NCBI GenBank assembly: GCA_049303795.1
Contig: JBAQNM010000006.1
Span: forward strand, 717 to 64,716
Source of the DNA: Candidatus Moraniibacteriota bacterium
GTDB taxonomy: Bacteria; Patescibacteriota; Minisyncoccia; Moranbacterales; UBA2206
DNA length: 64,000 bases
Reading direction: 5' to 3'
The translations under genes and the position numbers were made by a program. Position 1 is the stretch's first letter; every line of letters starts with the position of its first letter. Below the pieces are notes generated by a model. That model was not told the DNA's origin and searched no databases. It was given only the letters and a program-made list of their open reading frames with translations. This document shows, piece after piece, positions 4,158 through 61,110 of the stretch.

Positions 4158-4892
4158 CTATTTTTTTGCGATTTTCCAAAGCAATTTAAAATAGCTCAGA
4201 TAAGCATCATGAATATCTTGACTGTCCATTTGAATAGCAAATATTTCCTTGCCGAAAGAAATTAATGTGACGCAATTATGCCAAATTTGAATTGAAATTG
4301 GAGTTGTGTGCTCTTGTCTCAAAAATCTGCATTCTCTATTTATTCTCTTAAGATTTATAGCTTCTTTTCTATATGCTTCACTAAATAATAATTTTGATTT
4401 TATATTTTTGTCTTGTCGCAGCTTATTGCTTTTCTCGAGAATTCCTCCAACTTCCAACATCTTAGTATGCTCCTCTGCTAAACAAGCCAAGATATATATT
4501 TCACTATTGGCTGGCATTTTTTCGTCATTTCGCAAAATAAGTTCGCGATAAGCCTGCGCCCCTTCATAAATTTTTATCTCCTGTCTGTTTGTCTGCCCTC
4601 CGAGTTTTTGATTAATTTCTTTTATAAGATTTTTAGCAATTTGTTCTTTAGTTTTTATATTATCAAAAATATTATCCGGATTAGAAATTTTATAATGATT
4701 GCGTCGTCCTTTTACCACGCCAATTACCATATTTTTTTCTATAAGACCCTTTAAGGCATCATAAATGACCTGACGATGTATTTTCAGTCTTTCAATTATC
4801 GGTCCAACTGTAACCTCCCCAACTTCAAGAAGGGTTTTATAAACTTTTATTTCATTATTAGTCAAACCAAGTTGTTTTAGTTCATTTTCCAT
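4158..4892 (-). CDS. TrmB-like winged-helix transcriptional regulator, paralog 1 of 9
   Basis: N-terminal LGLTNNEIKVYKTLLEVGEVTVGPIIERLKIHRQVIYDALKGL matches the TrmB-type wHTH. About 245 aa. C-terminus ends ...YFKLLWKIAKK, as in the other paralogs. Confidence 0.6.
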   Translation of the reverse strand: MENELKQLGLTNNEIKVYKTLLEVGEVTVGPIIERLKIHRQVIYDALKGLIEKNMVIGVVKGRRNHYKISNPDNIFDNIKTKEQIAKNLIKEINQKLGGQTNRQEIKIYEGAQAYRELILRNDEKMPANSEIYILACLAEEHTKMLEVGGILEKSNKLRQDKNIKSKLLFSEAYRKEAINLKRINRECRFLRQEHTTPISIQIWHNCVTLISFGKEIFAIQMDSQDIHDAYLSYFKLLWKIAKK

Positions 4893-5511: not shown

Positions 5512-6408
5512 TTACACATCCATCCCTCTTAACGCCTTTATTCTCTCTTCAATTGGTGGGTGGGTCATAAACATCTTCATCATTTTTTTTCCCTTGAAAG
5601 GATTGGCGATAAAGAGATGGGCGGTGGCGCGGTTAGCGGCTTCGAGTGGCTCCGTATCTTGAGAAATTTTTTCCAAAGCTTTTGCCAACCCTTCTGGATA
5701 GCGAGTGAGAAGTGCGCCTGAAGCATCCGCCAAAAATTCACGTTTACGAGAAATTGCCAATTGCATTAGCATGGCCGCAATAGGCGCTAAAATAGAAAGA
5801 ATGATTGCTACAATTATGAGAATCATTCGCAATTGTCCACCTTCACTGTTATTGTCTCTCGAGCGTCCTCCAAAAAAAGCCCAGTGACGAAACCAATCTG
5901 CCAAAAGTGTCACGAATCCCACCAGAATCACGATCACGGTTGAAAGTAAAATGTCGCGATTGCCAATATGTGATAACTCATGCGCAATCACGCCCTCAAT
6001 TTCCGTTTTTTCTAATCGTGAAATTATCCCAGTAGTGAGACAAATTACTCCATGCTGTGGATCACGGCCTGTGGCAAAAGCATTCATCGCTGAATCTTGG
6101 ATTATATATATTTTTGGCACTGGTAGTCCCGCCGTAATGCAAAGATTTTCCACAAGATGATAAATTTCCGGATTTTCAGAATGCTTTACCTCCTTGGCAG
6201 AACTCATCGCTAAAACTATTTTGTCACTCCACCAATATGAACCAAGACTCATAAGTGTTGAAAAAATAACTGCTCCATATAAAATTGCACTATTCCCCAT
6301 CGCCTGAGCAAAAACATAGCCCACACCAATAACAAAAATTAAAAAACCAGAAATATAAATCCAGGTAAGTCGAGTATTTCTATCTGATTGATCATATAAA
6401 GTCGCCAT
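5512..6408 (-). CDS. htpX: Zinc metalloprotease HtpX (peptidase M48)
   Basis: HELSHIGNRD (HExxH) motif and TM helices. The C-terminal FMTHPPIEERIKAL motif is typical of HtpX. Confidence 0.9.
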   Translation of the reverse strand: MATLYDQSDRNTRLTWIYISGFLIFVIGVGYVFAQAMGNSAILYGAVIFSTLMSLGSYWWSDKIVLAMSSAKEVKHSENPEIYHLVENLCITAGLPVPKIYIIQDSAMNAFATGRDPQHGVICLTTGIISRLEKTEIEGVIAHELSHIGNRDILLSTVIVILVGFVTLLADWFRHWAFFGGRSRDNNSEGGQLRMILIIVAIILSILAPIAAMLMQLAISRKREFLADASGALLTRYPEGLAKALEKISQDTEPLEAANRATAHLFIANPFKGKKMMKMFMTHPPIEERIKALRGMDV

Positions 6409-9475: not shown

Positions 9476-10243
9476 ATGAAACTAGACAATATTTTGAATC
9501 TATTTAATATTAGAGAAACAGAGAAAGAAATTTTTAAGATTTGCTTTGAATCTGATGGGATTGGGGCTAGCGAAATTGCCAAAAAAATAGGAATTAACCG
9601 CACTTCGACTTATGATTTTTTGGATAATTTGGTTAAAGCCGGTCTAATCATTGAATCACAAAAACAAGGAGTAAAAAAATTTTACGTCCAAAAACCGGAA
9701 AAAATCGAAGAGCTAATTAAAGAAAAAGAAGGAAAAGTTTCAGTTGCTAAAAAATCGATAGAGGATCTTAAAAATAATTTTTACCAAAATAAAAAAAGAA
9801 TTGCCCCAAAAATGCAGTTCTACGAAGGAAAAGAAGAATTACGACAGATGATGAAAGATTTGCTATTATATCAAAACATAACAATCTATTCATTCTGGCC
9901 AATTGAGAATATTATTCAAGCTCTTGGAAAAGATTTTTACAGAGAATTTCATGTAAAAAGAGTCGCTAGTAACATTAAAATTAAAGTTATTTGGCCACAA
10001 AAACATACTAAGCAAAAAGAGAAGCACTCTTTTCTTGAAGGATCTGAAAATTTCAAAAGAGAAATCAGAATCTTACCTGAAGATATAGACTTTAATCTCG
10101 GCTACACTATTTATAGTAATAATGTTAGATTTATGTCCTCTCAAAAAGAAGGCTACGGATTTATAATTGAGAGCCAAGAAATGGCAGATACAATGAAAAA
10201 ACAATTTGAGATTATTTGGAAAATATCTAAACCCTTATCTTAA
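9476..10243 (+). CDS. TrmB-like winged-helix transcriptional regulator, paralog 2 of 9
   Basis: N-terminal wHTH (EKEIFKICFESDGIGASEIAKKIGINRTSTYDFLDNLVKAGLI). C-terminal GYTIYSNNVRFMSSQKEGYGFIIESQEMADTMKKQFEIIWKISKP is shared with the other paralogs. Confidence 0.6.
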   Translation: MKLDNILNLFNIRETEKEIFKICFESDGIGASEIAKKIGINRTSTYDFLDNLVKAGLIIESQKQGVKKFYVQKPEKIEELIKEKEGKVSVAKKSIEDLKNNFYQNKKRIAPKMQFYEGKEELRQMMKDLLLYQNITIYSFWPIENIIQALGKDFYREFHVKRVASNIKIKVIWPQKHTKQKEKHSFLEGSENFKREIRILPEDIDFNLGYTIYSNNVRFMSSQKEGYGFIIESQEMADTMKKQFEIIWKISKPLS

Positions 10244-18619: not shown

Positions 18620-19363
18620 CTATCTATGATTCACATACTGCTTCGACCTTTTCCAGATTATTTCAAACATTGCCGTTAAGGCATTCTTTACTTTAATATT
18701 TTCAATGACAATACACAGACTGTCTTCCGGAATCATAACAACAGTTTTATTTGAAAATAGATAAAGCATAATTTTAAAATCATCAAACATGGCGCTAGTT
18801 CGAATTTGAATTTTGTGATTTTGAATAACAAACTCATCTTTTTCACTGGAAGGAATAATGGTACGGGATTTTATTCCTAGCTTTTTCTTCTCTGTCAATA
18901 AGTCTTTCCAAAAATCATAGCCTAACTTGAAAGCAGAACGAATATCCCCTTCTATTGTTAATAGCTCGTCTTTTTCTGGATTTAAAACGATAATCTCTTT
19001 TAATGTTTCTTTCAGACCCGTGTTTGTATCATAAAATCTTATTTTATTTCCAGCCGATTTTTGCTCAAATGCATTTTCCAATTGAGGCATTAGAGCATCC
19101 AAAAGATAATACTGATCCTTGATTCGTGAGAGCAGTATCTTTGGATTTTTTATATAATACCTCTTTCTTTTTTTGATTATCTCCATGGCAATCAAATCTT
19201 TCTCTGCCATTTGATCAATCACTAAATATAGGGATGTTCTTTTGATTCCTGTATTTTTTGATATTTCCTGAAGAAATTGCGGTCCTTTTTGAAGAAGGGA
19301 AAGATAAATTTTTCCTTGACTGTCAGGCAAGCCAATTTTTTCTAGTTGTTCTTTTGTTATCAT
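18620..19363 (-). CDS. TrmB-like winged-helix transcriptional regulator, paralog 3 of 9
   Basis: N-terminal wHTH (GKIYLSLLQKGPQFLQEISKNTGIKRTSLYLVIDQMAEKDLI). C-terminus ...LTAMFEIIWKRSK. Confidence 0.6.
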   Translation of the reverse strand: MITKEQLEKIGLPDSQGKIYLSLLQKGPQFLQEISKNTGIKRTSLYLVIDQMAEKDLIAMEIIKKRKRYYIKNPKILLSRIKDQYYLLDALMPQLENAFEQKSAGNKIRFYDTNTGLKETLKEIIVLNPEKDELLTIEGDIRSAFKLGYDFWKDLLTEKKKLGIKSRTIIPSSEKDEFVIQNHKIQIRTSAMFDDFKIMLYLFSNKTVVMIPEDSLCIVIENIKVKNALTAMFEIIWKRSKQYVNHR

Positions 19364-20942: not shown

Positions 20943-21692
20943 TTATTTTGTTAAGCTCCAAATCAAATCAAATTTGCTTTTCTCGCTTTTAGCTATTTCT
21001 TCACTTTCGATTTTAACGGCAATTAGCTCTTTTTTGGAGGTGAAAATTGCTACTGTATTTTGATATATTAAAACAAAAGATGGGTGATAAAAATCTGCTG
21101 GTAGAAATTTTATTTCTCGTAAATCGCTAGCATTTTTTTCACTCGAAAAAAAATCTTTAGGAAAAAATTCTGCCACTTCTTTCTCAAAATATAAAGCTTT
21201 TATCTTGGAATTATTTTTTATTCTTTCGGGAATATAGTATTTTTGATCATATTCTTGCCCAACTATTTCATAAATTTTTTTGAGAGATCCAATAGCTCGG
21301 ATAGTTTCGTTCATTTTTAATGATTCATTGGCAATTGAAATGTAACCTTCTTTTCCCTCATACATAGTCACTCTCGGCTTGTAATAAGAGTTTTTTTGAA
21401 TAGCATTAAGTTCAGGGATTATTTCATTGACCTCGCTCAATCTTTTTTTTAATTGATCAGAAAGCAAAGTTGGTGACGAAGCAACAAAACGCAAACCATT
21501 GGGTAATTTAAAATTTCCCATCAAACCTTTTTCTTCAAGATTTTTTGCAATCAAATATGCTGAACTTCTTTTAATCCCAGCTATTTTAGCGATTCTGGCT
21601 AGAGGTGCTTCGCCTAATTTCAAACCAGCCAGATATAGTCGTGTTTCTTCATTGCTTAGTCCATAATTTTTCAAAACTTGTTCAATATTCAT
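20943..21692 (-). CDS. TrmB-like winged-helix transcriptional regulator, paralog 4 of 9
   Basis: N-terminal wHTH (ETRLYLAGLKLGEAPLARIAKIAGIKRSSAYLIAKNLEEKGLM). C-terminus ...SKFDLIWSLTK. Confidence 0.6.
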   Translation of the reverse strand: MNIEQVLKNYGLSNEETRLYLAGLKLGEAPLARIAKIAGIKRSSAYLIAKNLEEKGLMGNFKLPNGLRFVASSPTLLSDQLKKRLSEVNEIIPELNAIQKNSYYKPRVTMYEGKEGYISIANESLKMNETIRAIGSLKKIYEIVGQEYDQKYYIPERIKNNSKIKALYFEKEVAEFFPKDFFSSEKNASDLREIKFLPADFYHPSFVLIYQNTVAIFTSKKELIAVKIESEEIAKSEKSKFDLIWSLTK

Positions 21693-23502: not shown

Positions 23503-24288
23503 ATGGATATAATAAAAATCTTAGAAAAAATCAATTGCACGGATTTTGAAGCCAGAACTTTCCTGGCGCTCTTGGAGGAATCAAAAGGCGCGAGCGTTTT
23601 GGGTTTGAGTAAAAAGTTAAATCTGCCTCGTCCTACAATTTATGGTCATATAGAATCTTTGATTGAAAAAGGGTTGGCAAAAAAAGGCGTGGGAGAAACC
23701 GGGGCAGTTTTTTATGCTGAAGATAAGGAAAATATTCTAAGCATTTATAATGAAAAAATTGAAGAAATGAAAAAGGCCCGGGAAAATTTTTCTGAGGCAT
23801 TTAAAAATAAAGATTATGGAGCCACTTATCAGCCAAAATTAATCCACTATTCCACTAAAGATGCTGCCAAATCAATTTTGCGCGATATTTTGAGATCAAG
23901 AGAAAAGGAAACTTATTGGTTCTGGCCTCTCAAAGAAATGCTGAAAGTAATTCCGGAAGAGGTTCTGCAAAATTTTAATGAAGAAAGGGTAAGAAGAAAA
24001 ATTTGGACAAATATACTTTGGCCACCAAAAAGAAAAATTGATATAAAAAAATATCCCTTGCTTGGGCCTTGGAACGAGAAAGAATCTTTGCGCAGGATAA
24101 AAATTTTACCGGAAAATATCGATCAGACTTTAGGTTATGCGATTTATGGCGACAAAGTAGCCTTCATTTCTTCCGATAGGGAAAATTACGGCATGATTAT
24201 TGACAGCCGAGAACTTGCCCAAACTCTGAAAGCTCAATTTGATTATTTTTGGAAAATATCAAGACTTATAAAACAAGAATCAGTCTAA
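23503..24288 (+). CDS. TrmB-like winged-helix transcriptional regulator, paralog 5 of 9
   Basis: N-terminal wHTH (FEARTFLALLEESKGASVLGLSKKLNLPRPTIYGHIESLIEKGL). C-terminal GYAIYGDKVAFISSDRENYGMIIDSRELAQTLKAQFDYFWKISR. Confidence 0.6.
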   Translation: MDIIKILEKINCTDFEARTFLALLEESKGASVLGLSKKLNLPRPTIYGHIESLIEKGLAKKGVGETGAVFYAEDKENILSIYNEKIEEMKKARENFSEAFKNKDYGATYQPKLIHYSTKDAAKSILRDILRSREKETYWFWPLKEMLKVIPEEVLQNFNEERVRRKIWTNILWPPKRKIDIKKYPLLGPWNEKESLRRIKILPENIDQTLGYAIYGDKVAFISSDRENYGMIIDSRELAQTLKAQFDYFWKISRLIKQESV

Positions 24289-28463: not shown

Positions 28464-29210
28464 TCAGATTAAATTTTTAGAATATACTTTTGCTCCACTC
28501 CATGATAACTCATAAACTTGACGCATAGCATCTGCAATAACTCTACTTTCAATAATTATTGACATATTTTCCGTATAATTCATAAAAGCGACTTTGTTTT
28601 TGTATATATTTACTTCAATTTGAGGATTGAAAATTTCTTCAGAAACAATAATTGTTTCTGATAACTCTTTTTTATCTAAGAATTTATGCTTTGTATCCCA
28701 CAAAGATCCTTGTCCAGCAATACGACGCGCCTTAATGTTTAAGTTAGTACGTTTTTCAATGTAATTATAATCCCTAGGAAAACGTTCAAAAAAAGCATTA
28801 GTATTCCATTCTAAAATTTCTCCTGGCTTTTCCCTGAGGGTATCTTCGTAAATATTGTGAATCGCATTTTCTCCTTCAAAAAAAAGAATCTTAGGTTTAG
28901 TTTCATTTTTATTATAGATCGCTTCTAGCTGAGGTAGGTTTTTTTTAATTTCAGCTTGAACTTCTCCAGCTATGCTTAAAAGTTTCTCCGGAGGTTCAGC
29001 TACAAATTTAGTTTTATTTTTTATTATAGTTTTTCCTACAACTCCACGATTTACAAGGTAACCCAAAACAGAATAGGCAGTGGTTCGTTTTAGATTAGCT
29101 TTTTTAGCAATGTCTTGCGCAGAGGATGTGCCTAATTCTAAAGAAGCCAAATAAATTTTTGCTTCATTATGGGAAAAACCAAATTTTTCTAAAATGTGTT
29201 CTATTTTCAT
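28464..29210 (-). CDS. TrmB-like winged-helix transcriptional regulator, paralog 6 of 9
   Basis: N-terminal wHTH (EAKIYLASLELGTSSAQDIAKKANLKRTTAYSVLGYLVNRGVV). C-terminus ...MRQVYELSWSGAK. Confidence 0.6.
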   Translation of the reverse strand: MKIEHILEKFGFSHNEAKIYLASLELGTSSAQDIAKKANLKRTTAYSVLGYLVNRGVVGKTIIKNKTKFVAEPPEKLLSIAGEVQAEIKKNLPQLEAIYNKNETKPKILFFEGENAIHNIYEDTLREKPGEILEWNTNAFFERFPRDYNYIEKRTNLNIKARRIAGQGSLWDTKHKFLDKKELSETIIVSEEIFNPQIEVNIYKNKVAFMNYTENMSIIIESRVIADAMRQVYELSWSGAKVYSKNLI

Positions 29211-42520: not shown

Positions 42521-43234
42521 ATGTCAGGACACTCACATTGGGCTGGAATAAAGCATCGCAAAGGGATAAATGATGCCAAACGTGCCAAGATTTTTACTAA
42601 ACTCGCCAAACCAATTGTTATTGCGGCACGTGAAAGCGGTGGTAACCCGGATACAAATTTCAAACTCAGAATGGCCATAAAAAAAGCCCAGGAATTTAAT
42701 ATGCCCAAAGACAATATTGACAAAGCGGTTAAAAAAGGAACGGGCGAATTAGGTGACGTAGAAATTTCAGAAATCATTTATGAGGCCATGGGTCCAGGCA
42801 ACATCATGATGCTCATCAAAACTTCCACTGACAATAAAAACCGCACAGTCAGCGAAGTCAAAAGCATTATCACTAAAGCTGGTGGAAAATTTGGTGAAGC
42901 TGGCAGTGCTATGTGGAATTTTGAACAAGTTGGTGGCATCATAATTGATTTGACTGGCAAAGATGCAGACGAGCTCGAAATGCTCGCCATTGAAGCCGGG
43001 GCCAAAGATACTAAAATTGAAGAAGATTTACTTTTCATCTACACAGAACCTCAGGACCTGCAAAAAGTTCAAGAAAAATTAATCGAAAAAAATATTGAAA
43101 TTTCTGAATCCAATCTAACCTTCTTGCCAAAAACTACTGTCGAAATTAATGAAAGCACTCAGGAAAGCTACGACAAACTTCTTGAAACTCTTGATGAACA
43201 AGAGGATGTGGAGGAAATTTTTGATAATTTATAA
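42521..43234 (+). CDS. YebC/PmpR-family transcriptional regulatory protein
   Basis: The N-terminus MSGHSHWAGIKHRKG...AKRAKIFTKL is diagnostic for the YebC family. Confidence 0.9.
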   Translation: MSGHSHWAGIKHRKGINDAKRAKIFTKLAKPIVIAARESGGNPDTNFKLRMAIKKAQEFNMPKDNIDKAVKKGTGELGDVEISEIIYEAMGPGNIMMLIKTSTDNKNRTVSEVKSIITKAGGKFGEAGSAMWNFEQVGGIIIDLTGKDADELEMLAIEAGAKDTKIEEDLLFIYTEPQDLQKVQEKLIEKNIEISESNLTFLPKTTVEINESTQESYDKLLETLDEQEDVEEIFDNL

Positions 43235-43242
43235 AATAATCC

Positions 43243-43806
43243 GTGAACATTTTTGAATCAATCCACGCAACACCCATAGAATTAATTGCCGGATTTGGAT
43301 ATTTAATCGGCCATTTTTTACTTTCAAATAAGCGTACTTCTGGATGGATTATTAAAATGATTGGTGCAATAGCTTGGACTACCTTTCTATTTCAAAATCA
43401 AAATTATATATTTATGTCAGTTTCTATTATTATAGTTTTAATGATGCTCTACGGTTTTTATAAATGGAAAATTGGCCAATATAACAAACAAACTAACATA
43501 GACAGATTTTTTGAGATTATTGCCGCAGTTGTGGCAATATCCATGATCTTAAGATTCGCCTTTTCTGGCATTTATCATTTAGGCCCACTTTTTGAAAGCC
43601 TAATCGTTACCGCAGAAATACTTGGAACAATCTTATTAGCAAACAAAAAAATAGCTGGGTGGTACTTTTATATCATCATGAGTATATTAGTAGGTATTTT
43701 AGTAATTTTTGTTAATCCAAAACCAGCAATAATTCTCGGCATCCTAGAAATGGCTTCGATTTATTTTTATTACAATGGGATTAAAAATTTTTCTAAAAAA
43801 ATATAA
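43243..43806 (+). CDS. Hypothetical polytopic membrane protein (possibly PnuC-like)
   Basis: 6-7 hydrophobic helices with Trp-containing segments. Weak resemblance to nicotinamide riboside transporters. Confidence 0.3.
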   Translation: MNIFESIHATPIELIAGFGYLIGHFLLSNKRTSGWIIKMIGAIAWTTFLFQNQNYIFMSVSIIIVLMMLYGFYKWKIGQYNKQTNIDRFFEIIAAVVAISMILRFAFSGIYHLGPLFESLIVTAEILGTILLANKKIAGWYFYIIMSILVGILVIFVNPKPAIILGILEMASIYFYYNGIKNFSKKI

Positions 43807-43815
43807 TATAAAAAA

Positions 43816-43852
43816 TCTAACTACGTACTAATGTAGTTTAGTTTTTTTTCTT
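43816..43852 (+). terminator. Terminator hairpin CTAACTACgtactaatGTAGTTTAG followed by a T-run
   Basis: 8-9-bp stem followed by TTTTTTTT. Confidence 0.55.
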
Positions 43853-43975
43853 AGAAAGTACTAAAAAATATTTGAAACACCTTCCCGCACAAGCCAAATT
43901 TTTTTGTAATAAATACAGATTTAATGCTACAATAAAGCTACGGTTTAGCTTAAGAAATCACAACTCAATCTCATT

Positions 43976-44530
43976 ATGAAAAACAATGCCCTAAAAATAC
44001 TCTTTATCTATAATGGTATTTTTGTTTTTGCTTCGGGACTACTCGGACCTCTTTATGCTATTTTTGTTGGAACAATTGATAAAAATATAATCTCCATAAG
44101 CATATCCTGGTCAGTCTTCTTGCTATCAACTACATTATCAATGTTATTCCTTAGAAATTACGGAGATAAAGTAAGGGAAAAAGAATACTTCCTTTTAGCA
44201 GGATTTTTGATTAGGGCCCTTGTGTGGTTCACATTCCCTTTTATTTCCACAATCTTTTTTTTAATTATATTGCAAGCATTACTTGGTATTGGAGAAGCCC
44301 TTGGTTCTCCTACGTTTGATACTATTTTTGCTGAACATCTCGATGATGGCAGACATATCAGGGAATATACTGATTGGAAGTTAATCTCCAACATTGCTAG
44401 CGCATTTGCAATTATTCTAGGTGGAATAATAATCAAACGATTTGGCTTTTCAATACTATTTTACATAATGGGAGTCTTGTCTTTAATTTCCTTTTTTGGT
44501 ATTTTATTTAAACCGAGAAAGTTATTATAA
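43976..44530 (+). CDS. Hypothetical membrane protein, MFS-half-like (6 TM)
   Basis: 184 aa. LLGIGEALGSPTF resembles an MFS motif. Confidence 0.3.
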   Translation: MKNNALKILFIYNGIFVFASGLLGPLYAIFVGTIDKNIISISISWSVFLLSTTLSMLFLRNYGDKVREKEYFLLAGFLIRALVWFTFPFISTIFFLIILQALLGIGEALGSPTFDTIFAEHLDDGRHIREYTDWKLISNIASAFAIILGGIIIKRFGFSILFYIMGVLSLISFFGILFKPRKLL

Positions 44531-44549
44531 AAAACTAACCAATCTCCTT

Positions 44550-44903
44550 ATGTTTAAAATAATAAAAATTTCTCACACATTAGTCTGGATTGTTATGGTT
44601 TCGGCCTGTTTTTATATTCTATACGCTGGCCTCACCAATACATTTGATTTAATTTTAGTTATTTCTATAATCTTACTCACTATAGAATCATTGGTGCTCA
44701 TATTCAATAACTGGACTTGCCCTTTCACTCCACTAGCAGAAAAATACACCACTGAAAAAAGTCATAATTTTGATATTTATATTCCAAGTTGGCTAGCTAA
44801 ATATAATAAACTTATCTTTGGGATAATCTTTGTAATGGGGATGATGCTGGTTATTTTTAATTGGATAACAAAATTCAAAACAATATGCACAATATCTTTT
44901 TAA
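44550..44903 (+). CDS. Hypothetical small membrane protein
   Basis: Start moved to the internal ATG (MFKIIKISHTLVWIVMV) to avoid overlap. Three helices. Confidence 0.3.
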   Translation: MFKIIKISHTLVWIVMVSACFYILYAGLTNTFDLILVISIILLTIESLVLIFNNWTCPFTPLAEKYTTEKSHNFDIYIPSWLAKYNKLIFGIIFVMGMMLVIFNWITKFKTICTISF

Positions 44904-45565
44904 TTCCTGGCTATGGGATACCTAAAAATATCCTAGAAGACGAAAATTATAATTTTTATTTAAAGCTGGCCTTTAATAAGATTTATAATTTTGTAGCGGA
45001 AAGCACCCCGGCAGAAACTCTAATTATTTGTTGTGGTGGAAAAACAGATATGATTAAGCCCTACAAACGAACCGAGGCTGATGAAATGAATAAGTTTTTT
45101 GCAGAATTAATTAAACAAAAACCATTTTTAGCTCCAATAACCAAAAACTGGGTTTTTATTTCTGAGAAAGAGTCACTATCAACCTTAGAGAATCTAATCA
45201 ACAGTAAGAAAATAATTGAAAAACAAAAAATTAAAAATGCTCGTATTTTTATTTTTTGCGAACAAACACGCGAAAAGCGTATTAAAACTTTAGCTAAAAA
45301 AATATTCAGCAGTGCTCACAACATTAAAATCATAGCGATTGATTTTGATCTATCCTCAAATAGATATTTATCACCAGAGTTTCTCGCTAAAAAAGAAAAG
45401 GCTAATCTAAAACATCTCTTATGGGCAATGCAAAGTCCGGAAAATCTAAAGAAGCATCGCGAGCTCCTTATTGAAAAAATAAACTACTTGCGCAAAGCAG
45501 GACCAAAAGCACATACCGACGCTGTAAAAAAATGGTGGGAACAAAAACTCAAGGAGTTAGACTAA
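44861..45565 (+). CDS. YdcF/ElyC/SanA-like (DUF218) protein
   Basis: IICCGGKTD...EADEM...ESLSTLENL pattern resembles the DUF218 core. Confidence 0.4.
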   Translation: MDNKIQNNMHNIFLIPGYGIPKNILEDENYNFYLKLAFNKIYNFVAESTPAETLIICCGGKTDMIKPYKRTEADEMNKFFAELIKQKPFLAPITKNWVFISEKESLSTLENLINSKKIIEKQKIKNARIFIFCEQTREKRIKTLAKKIFSSAHNIKIIAIDFDLSSNRYLSPEFLAKKEKANLKHLLWAMQSPENLKKHRELLIEKINYLRKAGPKAHTDAVKKWWEQKLKELD

Positions 45566-45614
45566 AACCCTAAAAGATTCATGCATAAATAAAAGAGTTG
45601 TATTTATATTTTAT

Positions 45615-46307
45615 ATGAAAGAAAATTTTAAAAAAATACCCAGACTTCCGCTATCAGCTTTGATTTTTTATTTGAGCATTCTTATTCTCTGGAAGTTTGG
45701 CTTCATTCCAAGCCCAAGCAATATCCTTGTTTTTTTAGAAAATTTATATACATCTTATGGATTAACTGGACTTTTCATCGCTTCCTTTCTTGAAGGAATT
45801 GTTTATCTTGGTTTATATTTTCCTGGCTCTTTTATCGTTGCCCTAGCAGTCATTTTATCAGATGGAAGCTTTACTTCCCTCCTCTTAATCAGTTTGATTG
45901 TTGCTTCTGCGCTAACAATAACTGCCTTAATAAATTATTCCTTTGGAAAAAAGATAGGAATTAATAAACAAAAAAATCAACTGCCACCTAAAGAAAATAG
46001 GGTTTTATCGAATGGATTGCTCATATCGATGTTACACCCAAATTCTTTAGCTTTCTATTTTTTTAATTCCGGCATAAAAAAACAAAATTTTCTAAAAATT
46101 TTATTCGTCCCTCTCGTTATGATTCCTTATGGACTTGCAGTTGGATATTTGCTTTATTCCATAAAAGGAGCTGTAAAGAAAGCCGTTGAAAGCCCTTATC
46201 TTATGATAACAATAATTTTAATTTGGATATTATTAGCTTTTGTAATAGAAATTAGAAAAACTTATCAAAATAATAACCATACAAAAGAATATGGGAAAGA
46301 TTTTTGA
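45615..46307 (+). CDS. Hypothetical membrane protein (DedA/SNARE-associated-like)
   Basis: FLEGIVYLGLYFPGSFIVALA motif and 5-6 TM helices. Confidence 0.35.
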   Translation: MKENFKKIPRLPLSALIFYLSILILWKFGFIPSPSNILVFLENLYTSYGLTGLFIASFLEGIVYLGLYFPGSFIVALAVILSDGSFTSLLLISLIVASALTITALINYSFGKKIGINKQKNQLPPKENRVLSNGLLISMLHPNSLAFYFFNSGIKKQNFLKILFVPLVMIPYGLAVGYLLYSIKGAVKKAVESPYLMITIILIWILLAFVIEIRKTYQNNNHTKEYGKDF

Positions 46308-46372: not shown

Positions 46373-46546
46373 CTATGAGTAACCTAAGAATTTTTCATGC
46401 GGACTCGCTTCTTTCTTTCCACACTTAATACATGCTTTTTTTACCGCAAGCCAGTGCTCCCTTCGGCCGCAACCATTAGGTTGCGACCATTTCCATTTTT
46501 CTATTTGTACAAAAAAATGCTCACATTCCCCTTTCTTTTTTAGCAT
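46373..46546 (-). CDS. Unannotated small Cys/His-rich ORF (57 aa, zinc-ribbon-like, C-x-H...C...C-x2-C)
   Basis: Strong RBS AAAGGGGGT 5 nt upstream of the ATG. The ORF is GC-richer than its surroundings. Not in the supplied ORF track. Confidence 0.3.
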   Translation of the reverse strand: MLKKKGECEHFFVQIEKWKWSQPNGCGRREHWLAVKKACIKCGKKEASPHEKFLGYS

Positions 46547-46714
46547 GATACCCCCTTTTTTTAAAATAAACTACAATAAGAACTGTCCTTATAATAGTCA
46601 TTAAATTTTATAATTACAAAGTTTTTATTAATTACTTGACTAAAATAGCCATTATGTGCTATTTTTTTAATATTAAATAAGACGATATTGTCGTCACTTT
46701 AATATTAATCACCT

Positions 46715-47473
46715 ATGAACAGAATAGAAAAAATATCCAAGGCACTCAATCTTTCAATTTACGAAGCAAAGATATATATTGCGCTCCAACAAAATGGCCC
46801 TCTCCTGATAAAAACACTTTCTAGACATGCAGAAATTCCAAGAACAACTATCTATACTCCGTTGCAAAAACTCCTCAAAAGGGGATTCGCTTCAAAAACT
46901 GTTTTTGGAAAACGTACATATTATTCCGCAATTCAACCAGAATATCTTCTTGGATTTATTGATGAACAAAAAAATCTTCTTCAGCAAACGATTTTAGAAT
47001 TAAATGGATTGGGAAAAATTCAGTCAGAAAAAAATAATTTTGAAACTACCTTTCATAGTGGAATAAACGGAATTAAAACTGCCGGATTATTTTTTTTACA
47101 TAATACCAAAGAAAAAACATGGTACTCTTTTGAAAACCTAGACTTAATAACAGAAAAGGTTAGTTTTGAGTTTGAAACATTTTATATAAAAGAGCGTGTC
47201 GCAAGAAAAATTAAATCAAAAATGATTCTTTCTTTCTCGGAAAAATCTTTTATATCTAATAATTTTTTAAAAAATGACATAAAAGACCTAAGGGAAACCG
47301 TATTGCTTTCTCAAAATCAATACCCCTTCCAAACAACAGTAGTTGCTACAAAAGGATTGGCACTTCTAATAAATCCCAATGAAAATCCTTTTGCTTTGTT
47401 AATTCGCAATAAACATTTAGCCGATACGTTTATCACTATCCATAAATGTTTATGGGGAAAATATAAAGCATAG
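46715..47473 (+). CDS. TrmB-like winged-helix transcriptional regulator, paralog 7 of 9
   Basis: N-terminal wHTH (EAKIYIALQQNGPLLIKTLSRHAEIPRTTIYTPLQKLLKRGF). Palindrome GACGA-tattg-TCGTC at 46681..46695 immediately upstream. Confidence 0.55.
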   Translation: MNRIEKISKALNLSIYEAKIYIALQQNGPLLIKTLSRHAEIPRTTIYTPLQKLLKRGFASKTVFGKRTYYSAIQPEYLLGFIDEQKNLLQQTILELNGLGKIQSEKNNFETTFHSGINGIKTAGLFFLHNTKEKTWYSFENLDLITEKVSFEFETFYIKERVARKIKSKMILSFSEKSFISNNFLKNDIKDLRETVLLSQNQYPFQTTVVATKGLALLINPNENPFALLIRNKHLADTFITIHKCLWGKYKA

Positions 47474-47545
47474 ATAAAAAGTTCCGTTAATCTAATAAAA
47501 TCCTTTCCGAAACTTTATTTTGAGGTTATAATATAAACATAAATT

Positions 47546-47636
47546 ATGAATAATTTGCGAATTTTAGGCATCGATCCAGGCACCACGACAACCGGTTGGG
47601 CGATTATTGAAAAAAATGGCGATAAACTACTATGAT
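47546..47636 (+). pseudogene. Truncated duplicate of the ruvC 5' end (MNNLRILGIDPGTTTTGWAIIEKNGDKLL*)
   Basis: 35 nt (gggcgattattgaaaaaaatggcgataaactacta) are identical to ruvC at 49102, and the upstream ataatataaacata is shared. The reading frame ends after 30 codons. Confidence 0.7.
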
Positions 47637-47697
47637 AAATACAATAAAAGGGCTTGCATTTGCAAACCCTTTTTTTATTAAGCTCAACCTTCATATT

Positions 47698-48090
47698 TTA
47701 TTCAATGCTCTCTATTTCAGCACAAATATGCACTTCGATTTTAATACCAAGCTTTCCCAATAATCCAATAGCTCGTAACACCTCAGATACTTGACTTGCT
47801 GAGATAATTTTTGGCAAGACGTCTTCCATAATCAAATTTATTTTATATTTTCCAACATCCCTCACATCATAACTATCACCCTTAAACCTAATGGCTGGAA
47901 AGATTAATCGCAGTCCATCCTTATTACATCCCATTACTGTTTGAAGAGGGCTTATCCATTTTTCAGGCGCAACCCTCTTTCCTGAAATAATCTGACTCAA
48001 AAATGATCTAACGCCACTGAGATTTTTTCCTCCAATAAGGGGCATTAATTTTTCTGCAACTTCCTTTTGGCTAATTTTTAACATCATCAA
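47698..48090 (-). CDS. Hypothetical protein (130 aa), divergent from paralog 8
   Basis: ORF only. Terminator-like hairpin AAGGGCTTGCATTTGCAAACCCTTTTTT at about 47650-47680. Confidence 0.35.
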   Translation of the reverse strand: MMMLKISQKEVAEKLMPLIGGKNLSGVRSFLSQIISGKRVAPEKWISPLQTVMGCNKDGLRLIFPAIRFKGDSYDVRDVGKYKINLIMEDVLPKIISASQVSEVLRAIGLLGKLGIKIEVHICAEIESIE

Positions 48091-48302
48091 CTCCTCCTTT
48101 ATTTTATATTATTAAACAACTTTCCAAAAAAATACCTTTCTGGAAAATACTATACACCAATTCGAATAAAATATTGCCAGTAGCGTTATCTTTTAAAAAA
48201 CCTTAATAAGATAAGTTGCTATTATTAGCTTTAATATTGACTTTTTAAGCTATTTTAATTATAATAAAAATAACGACGAAAGTAGCGTTATTATAAAAAA
48301 TT

Positions 48303-49046
48303 ATGCTTTTAGAAAAATTACAAATTGCTGGGTTATCAGAAAAAGAGGCTAAGGTATATGTAGCTGTTTTGGAATTGGGAGAGGCAACAATCGCCGAAAT
48401 TACAAAAAAATCCAAGATTAAAAGATCCACTATTTATGACATACTTAATACTTTAAAGGAAAAAGGCATAATAAGTCAGACTCGCCTCAACAAAAGACCT
48501 ATCTTTTTAGCAGAAAATCCAAAAAAAATGCTTGAAAAATTGGAGGAGAAAAAAAGAGGACTCGAAGAAGCTGTACCAGAGTTGCTTTCGATTATGAATC
48601 TTTTGGATAAGAAACCGAAAATTCGCTACTTTGAAGGAATAGAGGGAGTAAGAGAGGTTTTTGAAGATACACTTCGATATCCCAATCAAGAACTTCTAAC
48701 CTGGTTTTCTCATCCTAATATTAATCTTGGTGAAGATTTTTTTTGGAAATATTACAATCCAGAGCGCTTAAAAAGAAAAATTTGGGGCAGGGCAATCGCC
48801 ACTGATACTCCGCAAAACAGAGCTCTGAACGAAACTTTTGGAAATAAATGGCTAGCAAAAATGAAAATTTCCTCCAATAAATCTCTTCTTAAACTTGATA
48901 TCGAAATAAAGATTTATGGGAAAAATAAGGTTGGAATTGTTTCATACAAAGAAGATCTGGGAATTGTCATTGAAAGTAAAAAAATATATGACGGACTAAA
49001 AGCAATCTTTGAAGTAATGTGGGATTTATTGCCGGAAATAAAATAA
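48303..49046 (+). CDS. TrmB-like winged-helix transcriptional regulator, paralog 8 of 9
   Basis: N-terminal wHTH (EAKVYVAVLELGEATIAEITKKSKIKRSTIYDILNTLKEKGII). C-terminus ...LKAIFEVMWDLLPEIK. Confidence 0.6.
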   Translation: MLLEKLQIAGLSEKEAKVYVAVLELGEATIAEITKKSKIKRSTIYDILNTLKEKGIISQTRLNKRPIFLAENPKKMLEKLEEKKRGLEEAVPELLSIMNLLDKKPKIRYFEGIEGVREVFEDTLRYPNQELLTWFSHPNINLGEDFFWKYYNPERLKRKIWGRAIATDTPQNRALNETFGNKWLAKMKISSNKSLLKLDIEIKIYGKNKVGIVSYKEDLGIVIESKKIYDGLKAIFEVMWDLLPEIK

Positions 49047-49101
49047 AAAGCGCTTTAAAGAAACTTGTTTTAGGACTATAATATAAACATACTCATAAGC
49101 T

Positions 49102-49629
49102 ATGAAAAAAAAATCTGAAACTTTAAACTCAACCTTGCGAATTCTTGGCGTTGATCCCGGAACAGCCACGACTGGCTGGGCGATTATTGAAAAAAATGGC
49201 GATAAACTACTACCTTTAGCCTATGGCCACATCAGTACTTCGAAAGACAACACTGACGACGAAAGAATTTTTGAGGTTTCCAATGATCTTGCAAAAATAA
49301 TTCAAAAACACAAACCGACTGAAGCCGCTATTGAAAGTCTTTTCTTTTTTAAGAATCAAAAAACCGTCATCCAAGTTGCCCAGTCAAGAGGCGCAATTCT
49401 CTTGACTTTATGCCAAAATAGTGTTACAGTGTCCAGTTATACTCCGCTCCAAGTCAAGCAGGCCTTGACCGGATATGGACGAGCGGAAAAAAAACAAATG
49501 CAGTTGATGACTAAAAATATTCTGCATCTAAGCTCACTACCCAAGCCAGATGACGTGGCAGATGCATTGGCAATTGCGGTTTGTCATGTTAATAGCAGAT
49601 TTCTAATCAATTTAAAAAAACACTCATGA
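49102..49629 (+). CDS. ruvC: Crossover junction endodeoxyribonuclease RuvC
   Basis: ILGVDPGTATTGWAII start, catalytic Asp/Glu pattern, and 175 aa. Confidence 0.9.
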   Translation: MKKKSETLNSTLRILGVDPGTATTGWAIIEKNGDKLLPLAYGHISTSKDNTDDERIFEVSNDLAKIIQKHKPTEAAIESLFFFKNQKTVIQVAQSRGAILLTLCQNSVTVSSYTPLQVKQALTGYGRAEKKQMQLMTKNILHLSSLPKPDDVADALAIAVCHVNSRFLINLKKHS

Positions 49630-55431: not shown

Positions 55432-56892
55432 ATGAAAAAATATATTATCAACGATTTAGCGTCGTTAGAAAAATACGCTAAAACTATAAAAAATCCGATC
55501 ATTGCCGTAGGCGCTCGTCCATTCAATTTAACTATCGGCGTATATGATTTATTCAATCATTTTGAAGTTTTGGCCTGTAGGCGGTCAACAAAAGAAGCGT
55601 CTCTCTTGGAAGAAAAAATTAAAATTACCTATCTAAATGCTAAAAAAGAATTTAAGAATACAAAAAATTTCAAAACATACATCCCCCATATGCCGAAAGA
55701 TATCTTTAAAAACAAGGAGATAATGGATTACCTAGAAGCATATCGAGAAAAACCAGCCCTTCTTTTTTTCAGAATGTCGGAAGAACTGGAAAATATTTTA
55801 AAAAATAAAAAAGTTATTCCAGTCGGCACTGATTTTCGCATGTATGATAAATATGAAAACAAACTTAACTTTCAAAAACTACTTGAGCAATTGAAAATTT
55901 CCACTCCAAAATTTATAAAAGAAAAAGCTGCCAACTTAAATTACGCAAAACTAAAAAAAGAATTGGGTGATAAGTTTGTTGTTCAACTTCCAGTCACAGC
56001 ATTAGGCGCAGGAACTTTTTTTATTTTCGAAAAAACTGATTTTGAGAAAATGCTAAAAAAGGAAAATATCAAAAAAGCTATTGCTAAAAATGTTGATACA
56101 AAAATAGCCCGCTATATCGAGATGAGTTGCTCTCCTAGCATGACCGTTTGTGTCACAAAATTTGGAATCCTGCACACTAATCTTCAAAATCAAATAATCG
56201 ATGCCAAAGAAGTTCTTGAAAAAGGGAGAAGGTCTGGAGTTTTTTGCGGACACGACTGGAATAAAATTTTTAAAAAAGAAATTGAAGACCAGGCAATAAA
56301 AATTGCTGAAAAAATTGGCACATATCTCAAAGAAAAAGAAAACTTTGAAGGAATTTTTGGACTTGATTTTGTTCTAGAAAAAGAAACAAACAAGCTCTAT
56401 CCTATTGAAGCTAATGTCCGACTACTTGGATCATTTCCAATTTTACCAATGGTGCAAAAAAATGCTAACCAACCTTCCATTCAAGGATTACAAATTATTG
56501 AAAGTCTTAATAAAAAAGATTACGTATTGGACATCCAAGCACTTAATACTTTAATGCACCAACCAAAATCAGGCGCACACCTAAATATTCACGCCAGAAA
56601 CAAGCAACCAGTCTATGTTTCAGGAAGTATCAAACCAGGAATTTATAACATTGACGTAAAAAATAACAAAGTCTCTTATGCAAGAAAAGGTATATTTTTT
56701 AACGATCTAAAAAAACCAAACGAAATTCTACTTGTAAATGTGCCTTATAAAAATCGTGTTTTTGAACAACACAATGCATTATGCAAAATTATCACCAAAA
56801 GCACTTTTTTGAATGATAATGATAAGCTGAACAAATTAGCTAAATCAATGGTTAATTATGCCTATAAAAAGCTAGCCTTAAAGGCTATTTAA
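55432..56892 (+). CDS. ATP-grasp-like domain protein (486 aa)
   Basis: FVVQLPVTALGAGTFF and GIFGLDFVLEKETNKLYPIEANVRL resemble ATP-grasp B/C-domain motifs. Confidence 0.45.
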   Translation: MKKYIINDLASLEKYAKTIKNPIIAVGARPFNLTIGVYDLFNHFEVLACRRSTKEASLLEEKIKITYLNAKKEFKNTKNFKTYIPHMPKDIFKNKEIMDYLEAYREKPALLFFRMSEELENILKNKKVIPVGTDFRMYDKYENKLNFQKLLEQLKISTPKFIKEKAANLNYAKLKKELGDKFVVQLPVTALGAGTFFIFEKTDFEKMLKKENIKKAIAKNVDTKIARYIEMSCSPSMTVCVTKFGILHTNLQNQIIDAKEVLEKGRRSGVFCGHDWNKIFKKEIEDQAIKIAEKIGTYLKEKENFEGIFGLDFVLEKETNKLYPIEANVRLLGSFPILPMVQKNANQPSIQGLQIIESLNKKDYVLDIQALNTLMHQPKSGAHLNIHARNKQPVYVSGSIKPGIYNIDVKNNKVSYARKGIFFNDLKKPNEILLVNVPYKNRVFEQHNALCKIITKSTFLNDNDKLNKLAKSMVNYAYKKLALKAI

Positions 56893-60381: not shown

Positions 60382-61110
60382 ATGAAAAAAGAACTACAAA
60401 AGGCACTCTCATCTCTGGGAATAAACGAAAAACAAACCAGTCTATATTTGGCTTGTTTGGAATTGGGCTCAGCCAGTATTCAAGAATTAGCACAAAAATC
60501 CGGCATCAAAAGAACCAGCATTTATAATTTTCTTAAAGACCAGAAATTTAAAGAATTATTTTCTGAAATTGAAGAATCAGGCAAGGTTTTGTTAGTCCCC
60601 CAAAATCCTAAGATGCTCGTAGAAAAAGCCAGAAAAAATTTAGAAGAAATTAAATTTGCCTTGCCGGAACTTATGAGTATTTTTAATTTGCCTTCCGAGA
60701 AGCCACGCGTCCGATTTTATCAAGGTGAGGAAGGAATTAAAACGGCCTACCAAGATCTTCTTTTGGAAGGAAAAACCGTTTATGGTTTTTCCGATTATGA
60801 AAAAATGTTTGAGAGTATGCAACATTTTGATATGTGGAGAATTCCCAAGGAAAGAGTTAAAAGAAATATTAAGTTTTTTTGCATTGCAAAAAATGGCCCA
60901 ATGGGCCAAGAGGTGAAAAGAAAAGATAAGGAAGAATTACGCGAAACAAAACTCGTAGAAAATATTCAATTTGAAACAGAGATAAATATTTATGGCAATA
61001 AAGTGAGTCTCATAAGTTTTCGTGAACCTTTCGCCTGCGTGATCATAGAAGATCCCGCTATCTCTCAAACTCTAAAAAGCGTCTGGCAAAGTTGGTGGAA
61101 TTTGCTTTAA
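60382..61110 (+). CDS. TrmB-like winged-helix transcriptional regulator, paralog 9 of 9
   Basis: N-terminal wHTH (QTSLYLACLELGSASIQELAQKSGIKRTSIYNFLKDQ). C-terminus ...LKSVWQSWWNLL. Confidence 0.6.
   Translation: MKKELQKALSSLGINEKQTSLYLACLELGSASIQELAQKSGIKRTSIYNFLKDQKFKELFSEIEESGKVLLVPQNPKMLVEKARKNLEEIKFALPELMSIFNLPSEKPRVRFYQGEEGIKTAYQDLLLEGKTVYGFSDYEKMFESMQHFDMWRIPKERVKRNIKFFCIAKNGPMGQEVKRKDKEELRETKLVENIQFETEINIYGNKVSLISFREPFACVIIEDPAISQTLKSVWQSWWNLL

Follow-up and report, generated by a model that had tools for sequence, protein, structure and literature searches.

Why does the start of ruvC appear twice, on either side of a regulatory gene, in one genome? The question is raised by positions 46715-49629 of a 64-kb stretch of DNA, here termed the window, from the metagenome-assembled genome (MAG) of an uncultured Candidatus Moraniibacteriota bacterium (Patescibacteria/candidate phyla radiation, CPR; G+C 34%). 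In this region, a gene encoding a TrmB-like regulator, termed TrmB7, is followed by a truncated ruvC start, a gene of some 130 codons on the opposite strand, a second TrmB-like gene, termed TrmB8, and intact ruvC, all at the positions given, small corrections aside, in a preliminary description of the sequence. As presented below, this layout was probably created when DNA from another Moraniibacteriota lineage, resembling that represented by locus L092, recombined into ruvC through one homologous and one illegitimate joint, leaving the old ruvC start orphaned.

A Truncated ruvC Start Precedes the Intact Gene

The leftmost component, TrmB7 (46715..47473, plus strand), encodes a 252-residue winged-helix regulator (PF01978, E = 6.4e-15), with the operator-like palindrome GACGATATTGTCGTC (46681..46695) being found between its promoter and start codon. 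The 72-nt spacer downstream of TrmB7 contains a promoter-like ruvC leader (copy 1; 47515..47541, plus strand) that includes a -10 element, TATAAT, at 47527-47532. Next comes the orphaned 5' remnant of ruvC (47546..47635, plus strand), hereafter the stub, which reads MNNLRILGIDPGTTTTGWAIIEKNGDKLL before running into two stop codons and which is homologous to residues 10-37 of resident RuvC. The ruvC start is thus truncated, as first described, to 29 codons and a stop rather than to 30 codons. Positions 47597..47632 of the stub correspond to the first copy of a perfect repeat, termed R. At the right edge of R (47632|47633), taken here as the illegitimate junction, homology across the leader and the ruvC 5' end stops abruptly.

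The first inserted feature is a bidirectional intrinsic terminator (47646..47673; a 12-bp stem with T-runs on both strands) that begins 10 nt past the stub stop codon. Beyond this lie orf130 (47698..48090, minus strand; 128-130 residues), preceded by a strong GGAGGAG ribosome-binding site and divergent from TrmB8, a near-consensus TrmB8 promoter (TTGACT-17-TATAAT; 48237-48265, plus strand; 11/12 promoter match), the palindrome AATAACGACGAAAGTAGCGTTATT (48269-48292), located between this promoter and its gene, and TrmB8 itself (48303..49046, plus strand; 247 residues; PF01978, E = 7.9e-17). The current, cassette-borne ruvC leader (copy 2; TTTAAA-17-TATAAT; 49054..49091, plus strand) then leads into intact ruvC (49102..49629, plus strand), 1,580 nt downstream of the stub (i.e., one repeat period). 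The product of this gene is a full-length RuvC, matching PF02075 across positions 1-148 of 148 (E = 1e-49). The second copy of R (49177..49212) is found within ruvC, such that its left edge (49176|49177), the putative homologous crossover point, falls inside homologous ruvC sequence.

Alignment of the two ruvC starts, a check proposed in the preliminary description, revealed a 78-nt direct repeat (47555-47632 and 49135-49212) of 85% identity that ends in the 36 identical nucleotides of R. The previously reported identical run was thus confirmed, albeit with a length of 36 rather than 35 nt; such a match was seen in 0 of 100 shuffled sequences. The leaders preceding the two starts are likewise related, as had been claimed, with 47515-47541 and 49065-49091 sharing 81% identity around an identical 15-nt core, TATAATATAAACATA. 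In the window, this core occurs only at 47527 and 49077; 0.08 matches with at most one mismatch are expected by chance, and no shuffled sequence contained two.

Identity between the two ruvC pieces switches from 30/42 (71%) before R to 36/36 within R (Fisher p = 2.8e-4). The 12 differences in the 42 nt before R (47555-47596) fall at third (nine) and first (three) codon positions and at no second position. One of the first-position differences is a silent leucine change, and only two amino acids differ (I/V and T/A). Third-position identity is saturated (5/14 codons). Because the 12 differences are almost all silent, the two 5' ends appear to be different working ruvC alleles, that is, functional orthologs from different lineages, rather than a gene and a copy that decayed in place.

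Today, the stub seems to be in an early stage of decay, judging from a 30-nt in-frame deletion of an N-terminal extension that is retained in loci L085 and L008 and in the resident copy, and from a threonine in the DPGT-A-TTGW motif at a position where about 145 of some 155 relatives present alanine and only one presents threonine. The full-length fold of RuvC, with its catalytic acidic residues spread over some 150 residues, is not found in 29 codons. As such, the stub is a pseudogene remnant with no evident function and not a second ruvC gene. The terminator just beyond would be expected to stop transcripts initiated at the old ruvC promoter, as well as to end those of orf130. In public annotations (contigs L001, L003, L178, and L180; three deposited assemblies), the stub is called as a protein-coding gene of 29 residues; it should instead be flagged as a pseudogene fragment.

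The Layout Is Found in Several Assemblies

With the source being a MAG, and with contig breaks recurring nearby at 44276, 46589, and 49320, the possibility that an assembler joined two co-occurring strains at their common 36 nt was considered. Such a chimera is, however, highly improbable. The identical layout, at 100% identity, was found in three further MAG assemblies from different samples, namely, GCA_049296135, GCA_049286985, and GCA_049305975. In the first two, a single contig (L001 and L003, respectively) crosses both junctions, while in the third, the left junction is crossed by contig L178 (44276-48654) and the right junction by contig L002 (48646-55629). Because independent contigs read through both junctions, a one-off mis-assembly is excluded. 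Moreover, the junction R|TGATAA was found in Logan k-mers, and the adjacency of R to the terminator is not something that joining two strains could produce.

It was also noted that contigs from different assemblies break at the same coordinates. L178 and L181 both start at 44276, L001 and L003 at 46589, and L185 and L186 at 49320, inside ruvC, while L001 and L002 both end at 55629. Such recurrence points to these four positions harboring hidden repeats or variation between strains.

Relatives Reveal an Empty Site and a Lateral Origin for TrmB8

Orthologous ruvC loci were compared, as the preliminary description had also proposed, using a set of about 170 loci from species-representative genomes and metagenomes. 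The order ruvB-bPH-LTD/PKD-...-yebC-ruvC-7TM_transglut-ATP-grasp is conserved, and yebC and ruvC are usually adjacent. In 74 of the 82 loci containing both genes, the end of yebC lies no more than 400 nt from the ruvC start, with the two often touching; in the window, yebC (42521-43234) and ruvC are 5.9 kb apart. No second ruvC 5' end was detected in any of the approximately 170 loci. Accordingly, none of these relatives offers the intact second ruvC that had been named as the observation that would point to a true tandem gene.

Of these relatives, L085, a 180-kb ENA scaffold encoding a RuvB of about 87% identity, proved the most informative. Here, ruvB...yebC are followed by two small minus-strand ORFs (open reading frames), a TrmB7 ortholog (74% identity), a leader reading cttttaggaTTATAAT..., an intact ruvC of 173 codons, and the 7TM gene. 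L085 thus reads as an empty site, in which the left half of the window runs into a complete ruvC. The old leader (copy 1) is homologous to the ruvC leaders of L085 and L008. At silent sites, TrmB7 is 47% identical to its L085 ortholog, as compared to 42.5% for flanking genes (p = 0.23). Because this value equals that of the flanks, the adjacency of TrmB7 and ruvC seems to have been inherited vertically, consistent with TrmB7 being the resident upstream neighbor.

TrmB8 has a different history. Its closest ortholog (82% identity) is found in L092 (Logan SRR29054613), again in the interval leading from yebC to ruvC, in the order ruvB-...-yebC, four minus-strand genes, TrmB8. Both the TrmB8 promoter and its palindrome, as AACGACGAAAnnAGCGTTAT, are conserved upstream of the L092 gene. 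L092 is fairly distant from the window otherwise (RuvB, 78-80%; YebC, 64%; bPH, 51%), with TrmB8 being the best conserved of its proteins. At third codon positions, TrmB8 is 54% identical to its L092 counterpart as against 38.5% when the flanking genes are pooled (p = 1.6e-5). On the basis of these silent sites, TrmB8 appears too similar to the L092 gene for vertical descent, and because the two genes would share a more recent common ancestor than do the genomes themselves, lateral exchange of TrmB8 is indicated. The preliminary description had considered the TrmB-like modules to be mobile or recombinogenic within the chromosome. Mobility within the chromosome is not supported, as the silent-site comparison points to DNA from another lineage, and no mobility machinery was found. 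Finally, homology to the L085 TrmB7-ruvC spacer is seen in the leader that follows TrmB8, reaching back to the stop codon of the regulator. In the donor, TrmB8 would therefore have been placed with respect to ruvC just as TrmB7 is in L085.

These comparisons also bear on the earlier suggestion that the locus arose by duplication. The order regulator, leader, ruvC start does occur twice in the same orientation, as would be seen had a unit comprising a TrmB regulator and the ruvC start been duplicated in tandem within this genome and then diverged. Yet, TrmB7 and TrmB8 share only 30% identity, no more than does any pair among the nine TrmB-like paralogs of the window, as opposed to the 85% shared by the ruvC pieces. 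Each regulator has a far closer ortholog in another genome (74% for TrmB7 and 82% for TrmB8), nothing in the left unit corresponds to orf130 or the terminator, and the differences between the ruvC pieces are saturated at silent sites, as between functional orthologs, and not randomly distributed. Simple or recent tandem duplication was thus rejected, being effectively refuted by the identity of the regulators, their closer outside orthologs, and the silent-site pattern; a tandem duplication of this simple kind seems barely credible. That part of the earlier proposal invoking recombination that placed a regulator module before ruvC is, by contrast, supported by the empty site in L085.

Incoming DNA Probably Recombined at the ruvC 5' End

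One homologous and one non-homologous joint, together with DNA from a different lineage, are hallmarks of homology-facilitated illegitimate recombination, and these are seen here. Such a process would also call for uptake of DNA and RecA-dependent strand invasion in this organism. We infer the order of events, their direction, the donor lineage, and the exact, single-event mechanism as follows. In the ancestor, yebC would have abutted ruvC. In the lineage shared with L085, a small ORF and TrmB7 would have come to lie between them, giving the order TrmB7-promoter-ruvC. Linear or circularized DNA would then have arrived from an L092-like Moraniibacteriota lineage in which TrmB8 occupied the same slot, bringing the bidirectional terminator, the minus-strand gene orf130, TrmB8 along with its promoter and operator-like palindrome, a ruvC promoter, and some 25 donor ruvC codons. 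At the right joint, a homologous crossover is envisaged at 49176|49177, in the 5' part of the ruvC coding sequence, with the left joint having formed illegitimately at 47632|47633. With the illegitimate joint placed 36 nt downstream of where the crossover took place, this stretch of resident ruvC would be present in two copies. Alternatively, a heteroduplex or conversion tract may have rendered the two copies identical.

In terms of outcome, an intact but chimeric ruvC would now be read from an imported promoter, with that promoter and codons 1 to about 25 being incoming and the rest resident; the chimeric nature of the gene is deduced from the identity switch at 49176|49177. The old promoter and 29 codons would have been orphaned, insulated by the imported terminator and left to decay.

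Several observations weigh against this scenario. Either ruvC 5' end may be the native one, given that, in a count made by eye, L085 differs from the resident copy at 10/42 positions and from the stub at 14/42, and that L008 presents an N-terminal extension of the resident type. A sliding-window comparison with 13 relatives revealed no interpretable mosaic breakpoint inside ruvC, where synonymous sites are saturated. Homology-facilitated illegitimate recombination usually deletes, rather than duplicates, recipient DNA. The 36-nt identity also fits with a two-step history or with integration of a circle accompanied by a conversion tract. As to the donor, the L092 contig ends 80 nt past the TrmB8 stop codon, within a GC-rich hairpin repeat, such that ruvC is not visible; orf130 is absent from that contig; and no donor genome containing contiguous orf130-TrmB8-promoter-ruvC was recovered.

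In the two-step history, a segment comprising the terminator, orf130, TrmB8, the promoter, and ruvC codons 1-37 would first have been duplicated in tandem in a TrmB8-type genome. TrmB7-type DNA of a relative would subsequently have taken the place of the left copy through ordinary homologous recombination, with the right crossover falling in the stub at 47596|47597. Such a course of events fits the sequence as well as does a single event, accounts, through two standard events, both for identity rising sharply from 71 to 100% and for homology breaking off at 47632, and invokes slot occupants, TrmB7-type and TrmB8-type, that are both found in relatives. Nonetheless, it seems rather unlikely. Two rare events would be needed at one spot, the tandem intermediate was found in no genome, and the silent sites run opposite to what is predicted, with TrmB7 behaving as vertically inherited (p = 0.23) and TrmB8 as imported (p = 1.6e-5).

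The Inserted Unit Resembles an Integrative Cassette Only in Part

Perfect 36-nt direct repeats at both ends of a 1,580-nt unit are what would be expected of the attL and attR sites of a small, excisable integrative cassette. Such an element, with the 36-nt repeat serving as attachment site, would supply ruvC with a substitute promoter and 5' end, thus sparing the gene upon integration, could exist as a circle, and would be moved by a recombinase encoded elsewhere or by RecA acting between the repeats. In line with a circular form, a k = 31 Logan contig (L084; SRR28062512_90293; 1,610 nt) spans exactly one period (47597-49206), with ends that overlap by 30 nt (k-1), and this was seen in three samples. 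However, with the 36-nt repeat being longer than k, a closed contig is to be expected in a k = 31 graph. Logan contigs on the upstream side all terminate at 47626, with the final k-mer preceding R, while downstream contigs start only at 49320; the cycle closes because this exit branch is missing. The closed contig is thus probably a de Bruijn graph artifact caused by the repeat and was not accepted as proof of a circular form, given that the flanking contigs show the graph to be broken at R and at 49320.

Other properties also speak against an integrative cassette. The unit encodes no integrase or transposase, with its only genes being orf130, the product of which is helix-turn-helix (HTH)-like, and TrmB8, and no inverted repeats pair its ends. 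As read from its sequence, R is neither palindromic nor dif-like. No other copy of the unit was found in the window or in 186 loci, no viral contig or plasmid was matched, and none of the 10 ORFs of recombinase-like size in the window encodes a recombinase. We therefore consider an integrative cassette unlikely. Loss of the module through RecA action across the 36-nt repeats is possible in principle.

Two further candidates were rejected. An insertion sequence or transposon does not apply, as the unit contains neither a transposase gene nor terminal inverted repeats and its 36-nt duplicate lies within a homologous stretch of more than 130 nt, unlike a target-site duplication. A phage or defence origin was discounted since the cassette genes yielded no meaningful PHROG match and the unit no match to a viral contig or plasmid.

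The product of orf130 belongs to a family of 115-136-residue proteins sharing 30-42% identity, and matched no Pfam family, including those of HTH domains, and no PHROG. In an AlphaFold2 model of mean predicted local distance difference test (pLDDT) score 85, residues 7-62 form a helical bundle with pLDDT values above 90. The top matches of this model to the PDB in Foldseek were mostly HTH repressor domains of the XRE, C-protein, and P22 c2 type, with cyanase N-terminal domains recurring among them; these matches were weak (E = 0.5-3; TM-score 0.3-0.57). The N-terminal domain is a probable Cro/XRE-type HTH. No orf130 homolog was found next to other TrmB paralogs or in relatives (window and 186 loci). 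In longer proteins from other metagenomes, namely, P0153 (299 residues), P0154 (547 residues), and P0156 (632 residues), this HTH-like domain of about 60 residues is present as four to six tandem repeats.

TrmB-Like Regulators Recur Upstream of ruvC

The interval between yebC and ruvC is empty in most relatives and contains varied cargo in at least nine lineages. It exceeds 1 kb in 8 of the 82 loci containing both genes, as well as in L092. When L028 and L030, ruvC loci in which yebC was not detected, were added to these long-interval loci, the gene that immediately precedes ruvC, in the same orientation, was found to encode a TrmB-like protein of 247-299 residues in L085, L092, L023, L113, L026, L028, and L030. 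The slot regulators form at least five groups, namely, {TrmB7, L085}, {TrmB8, L092}, {L023, L113}, {L026, L030}, and {L028}, between which similarity (35-95 bits) is no higher than that between random paralogs. For this reason, the slot upstream of ruvC must have gained its occupants on several independent occasions. This makes the yebC|ruvC interval a recurrent exchange hotspot, with the window presenting one event caught as an addition rather than as a replacement.

Both TrmB7 and TrmB8 score above the curated PF01978 cutoff for the N-terminal winged helix of the TrmB family. No Pfam family matched residues ~80-250 of either protein, where a C-terminal sugar- or effector-binding domain was sought (E <= 0.01), and the two are best called TrmB-like. 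TrmB7 orthologs (66-74% identity) are always accompanied by a small divergent ORF and occur in at least four contexts. In the window, this partner is a shortened, cysteine-rich ORF (46373..46546, minus strand) that is 49% identical to the 79-residue ORF preceding the TrmB7 ortholog of L091, with orthologs of 79-81 residues being present in L087-L091 and L174-L175. In L087-L090, the TrmB7 ortholog lies directly upstream of polA, while in L091 it is found beside genes for RNase HII and a GIY-YIG protein. Such repeated proximity to replication and repair genes may hint that the TrmB7 subfamily regulates repair functions.

The nine TrmB-like paralogs found in the 64-kb window (4158-4892, 9476-10243, 18620-19363, 20943-21692, 23503-24288, 28464-29210, 46715-47473, 48303-49046, and 60382-61110) share 17-34% mutual identity. 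All nine have their own promoter and a divergently transcribed partner ORF, in most cases lacking a Pfam match and in one case encoding a radical SAM protein. In most, the start codon is also preceded, at a distance of 20-36 nt, by a palindrome specific to that paralog, each a variant of TGACGA...TCGTCA. The nine are thus probably self-contained, autoregulated modules, going by this organization. The claim that such modules are mobile finds indirect support on an evolutionary time scale, with at least five subfamilies having entered the slot and TrmB7 orthologs occupying at least four contexts. These findings support relocation over evolutionary time and do not, as such, show active mobility within the chromosome.

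A more far-reaching, and on present evidence doubtful, proposal is that the slot serves as a dedicated exchange site at which self-contained TrmB-like modules are swapped again and again between Moraniibacteriota lineages via the ruvC 5' end, with a new promoter arriving on each occasion, rewiring control of Holliday-junction resolution. Were this so, the 36-nt repeats might allow RecA-mediated loss or amplification of the module, toggling ruvC between two promoters and regulators, itself a tentative idea. The closed 1,610-nt contig could then conceivably represent a first hint of promoter toggling, although we are inclined to think otherwise.

In some relatives, repeats of two sorts are found just upstream of ruvC (L092, 8760-8824; L005, ~5920-5960; L011, ~720-820), namely, short hairpins rich in G+C (CCCTCTCC...GGAGAGGG) and tandem copies of ATTGAAAATTGAAAA. 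These are small elements found at the same hotspot.

Comparison With Known Exchange Systems

Homology-facilitated illegitimate recombination is proposed to underlie orphan immunity gene arrays of the Vibrio cholerae type VI secretion system (T6SS) and the "C-terminal displacement" seen in Rhs and contact-dependent inhibition (CDI) systems (PMC5361080). As in those cases, the incoming module is homologous at one end only and was added rather than swapped, a displaced piece of the resident gene lies beside the new module, and the donor would be a related lineage with a different slot occupant. Unlike those cases, the anchor is here provided by a housekeeping repair gene, at the 5' end of ruvC, instead of by a toxin gene; what was displaced is a 5' stub together with its promoter; regulators, and not toxin/immunity pairs, make up the cargo; and the joint presents a 36-nt duplication instead of a deletion. 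In the present case, moreover, the mechanism would have to be read back from the footprint.

The unit also recalls integrative elements that target genes, such as prophages and islands in tRNA or protein genes, in that direct repeats are present and the insert restores the end of the target gene. It differs in its 1.58-kb size, in lacking an integrase or excisionase, other copies, and element-like genes, and in replacing the 5' end of the target, promoter included. As at genomic hotspots or islets between core genes, the flanking synteny (ruvB...yebC and ruvC-7TM-ATP-grasp) is conserved while the cargo varies. Unlike at generic hotspots, that cargo is repeatedly TrmB-like and co-directional with ruvC, suggestive of more than random accretion. 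With respect to the regulators, the N-terminal winged helix (PF01978) and the presence of a promoter and a palindrome near each start codon are as in the TrmB family, whereas, unlike in characterized TrmB proteins, only the HTH domain was matched and no sugar-binding C-terminal domain was detected. A literature search for TrmB in Patescibacteria returned no paper.

The event is thus of a known kind and involves no new molecular machine; as a footprint of gene exchange, it is unremarkable, if very clean. It offers a clean, datable example of the acquisition and stacking of regulators in the reduced genomes of CPR/Patescibacteria, with the recombination joint, the incoming module, and the empty site each resolved to the single nucleotide. 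Of the by-products of the analysis, the recurrent association of TrmB-like genes with ruvC in CPR genomes is of most interest. With several TrmB-like subfamilies lying upstream of ruvC and TrmB7 orthologs upstream of polA, such regulators may control DNA repair genes.

Genes Neighboring the ruvC Locus

The left edge of the variable interval is marked by yebC (42521..43234, plus strand), encoding a TACO1/YebC family protein (PF20772 and PF01709). Between yebC and the small cysteine-rich ORF lies an island of lineage-specific genes, delineated with Pfam (43243..46307, plus strand), for which no homologs were found in the approximately 170 related ruvC loci. All on the plus strand, these genes encode a PnuC-like transporter (43243-43806), a half-length MFS protein (43976-44530), a product without a Pfam match (44496-44903), a protein weakly matching DUF218, below the Pfam cutoff (44861-45565), and a membrane protein of 230 residues (45615-46307). 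No RNA gene or riboswitch was detected in the island using Rfam (E <= 1), nor is a tRNA gene found nearby, and no further remnants or pseudogenes of ruvC or yebC were found in the intergenic gaps of the island. The 184-residue MFS ORF covers positions 1-173 of the 347 positions of MFS_1 and is overlapped by the ORF of 135 residues at 44496-44903; the MFS ORF may represent a transporter that was truncated or frameshifted.

Downstream, the ruvC stop codon overlaps the start codon (ATGA, 49626-49629) of the gene encoding the 7TM_transglut membrane protein, which is followed by genes for ATP-grasp and RimK-like ligases, extending to 52692. The ruvC-7TM-ATP-grasp linkage is kept across Moraniibacteriota, with these being unusual operon partners for a Holliday-junction resolvase.

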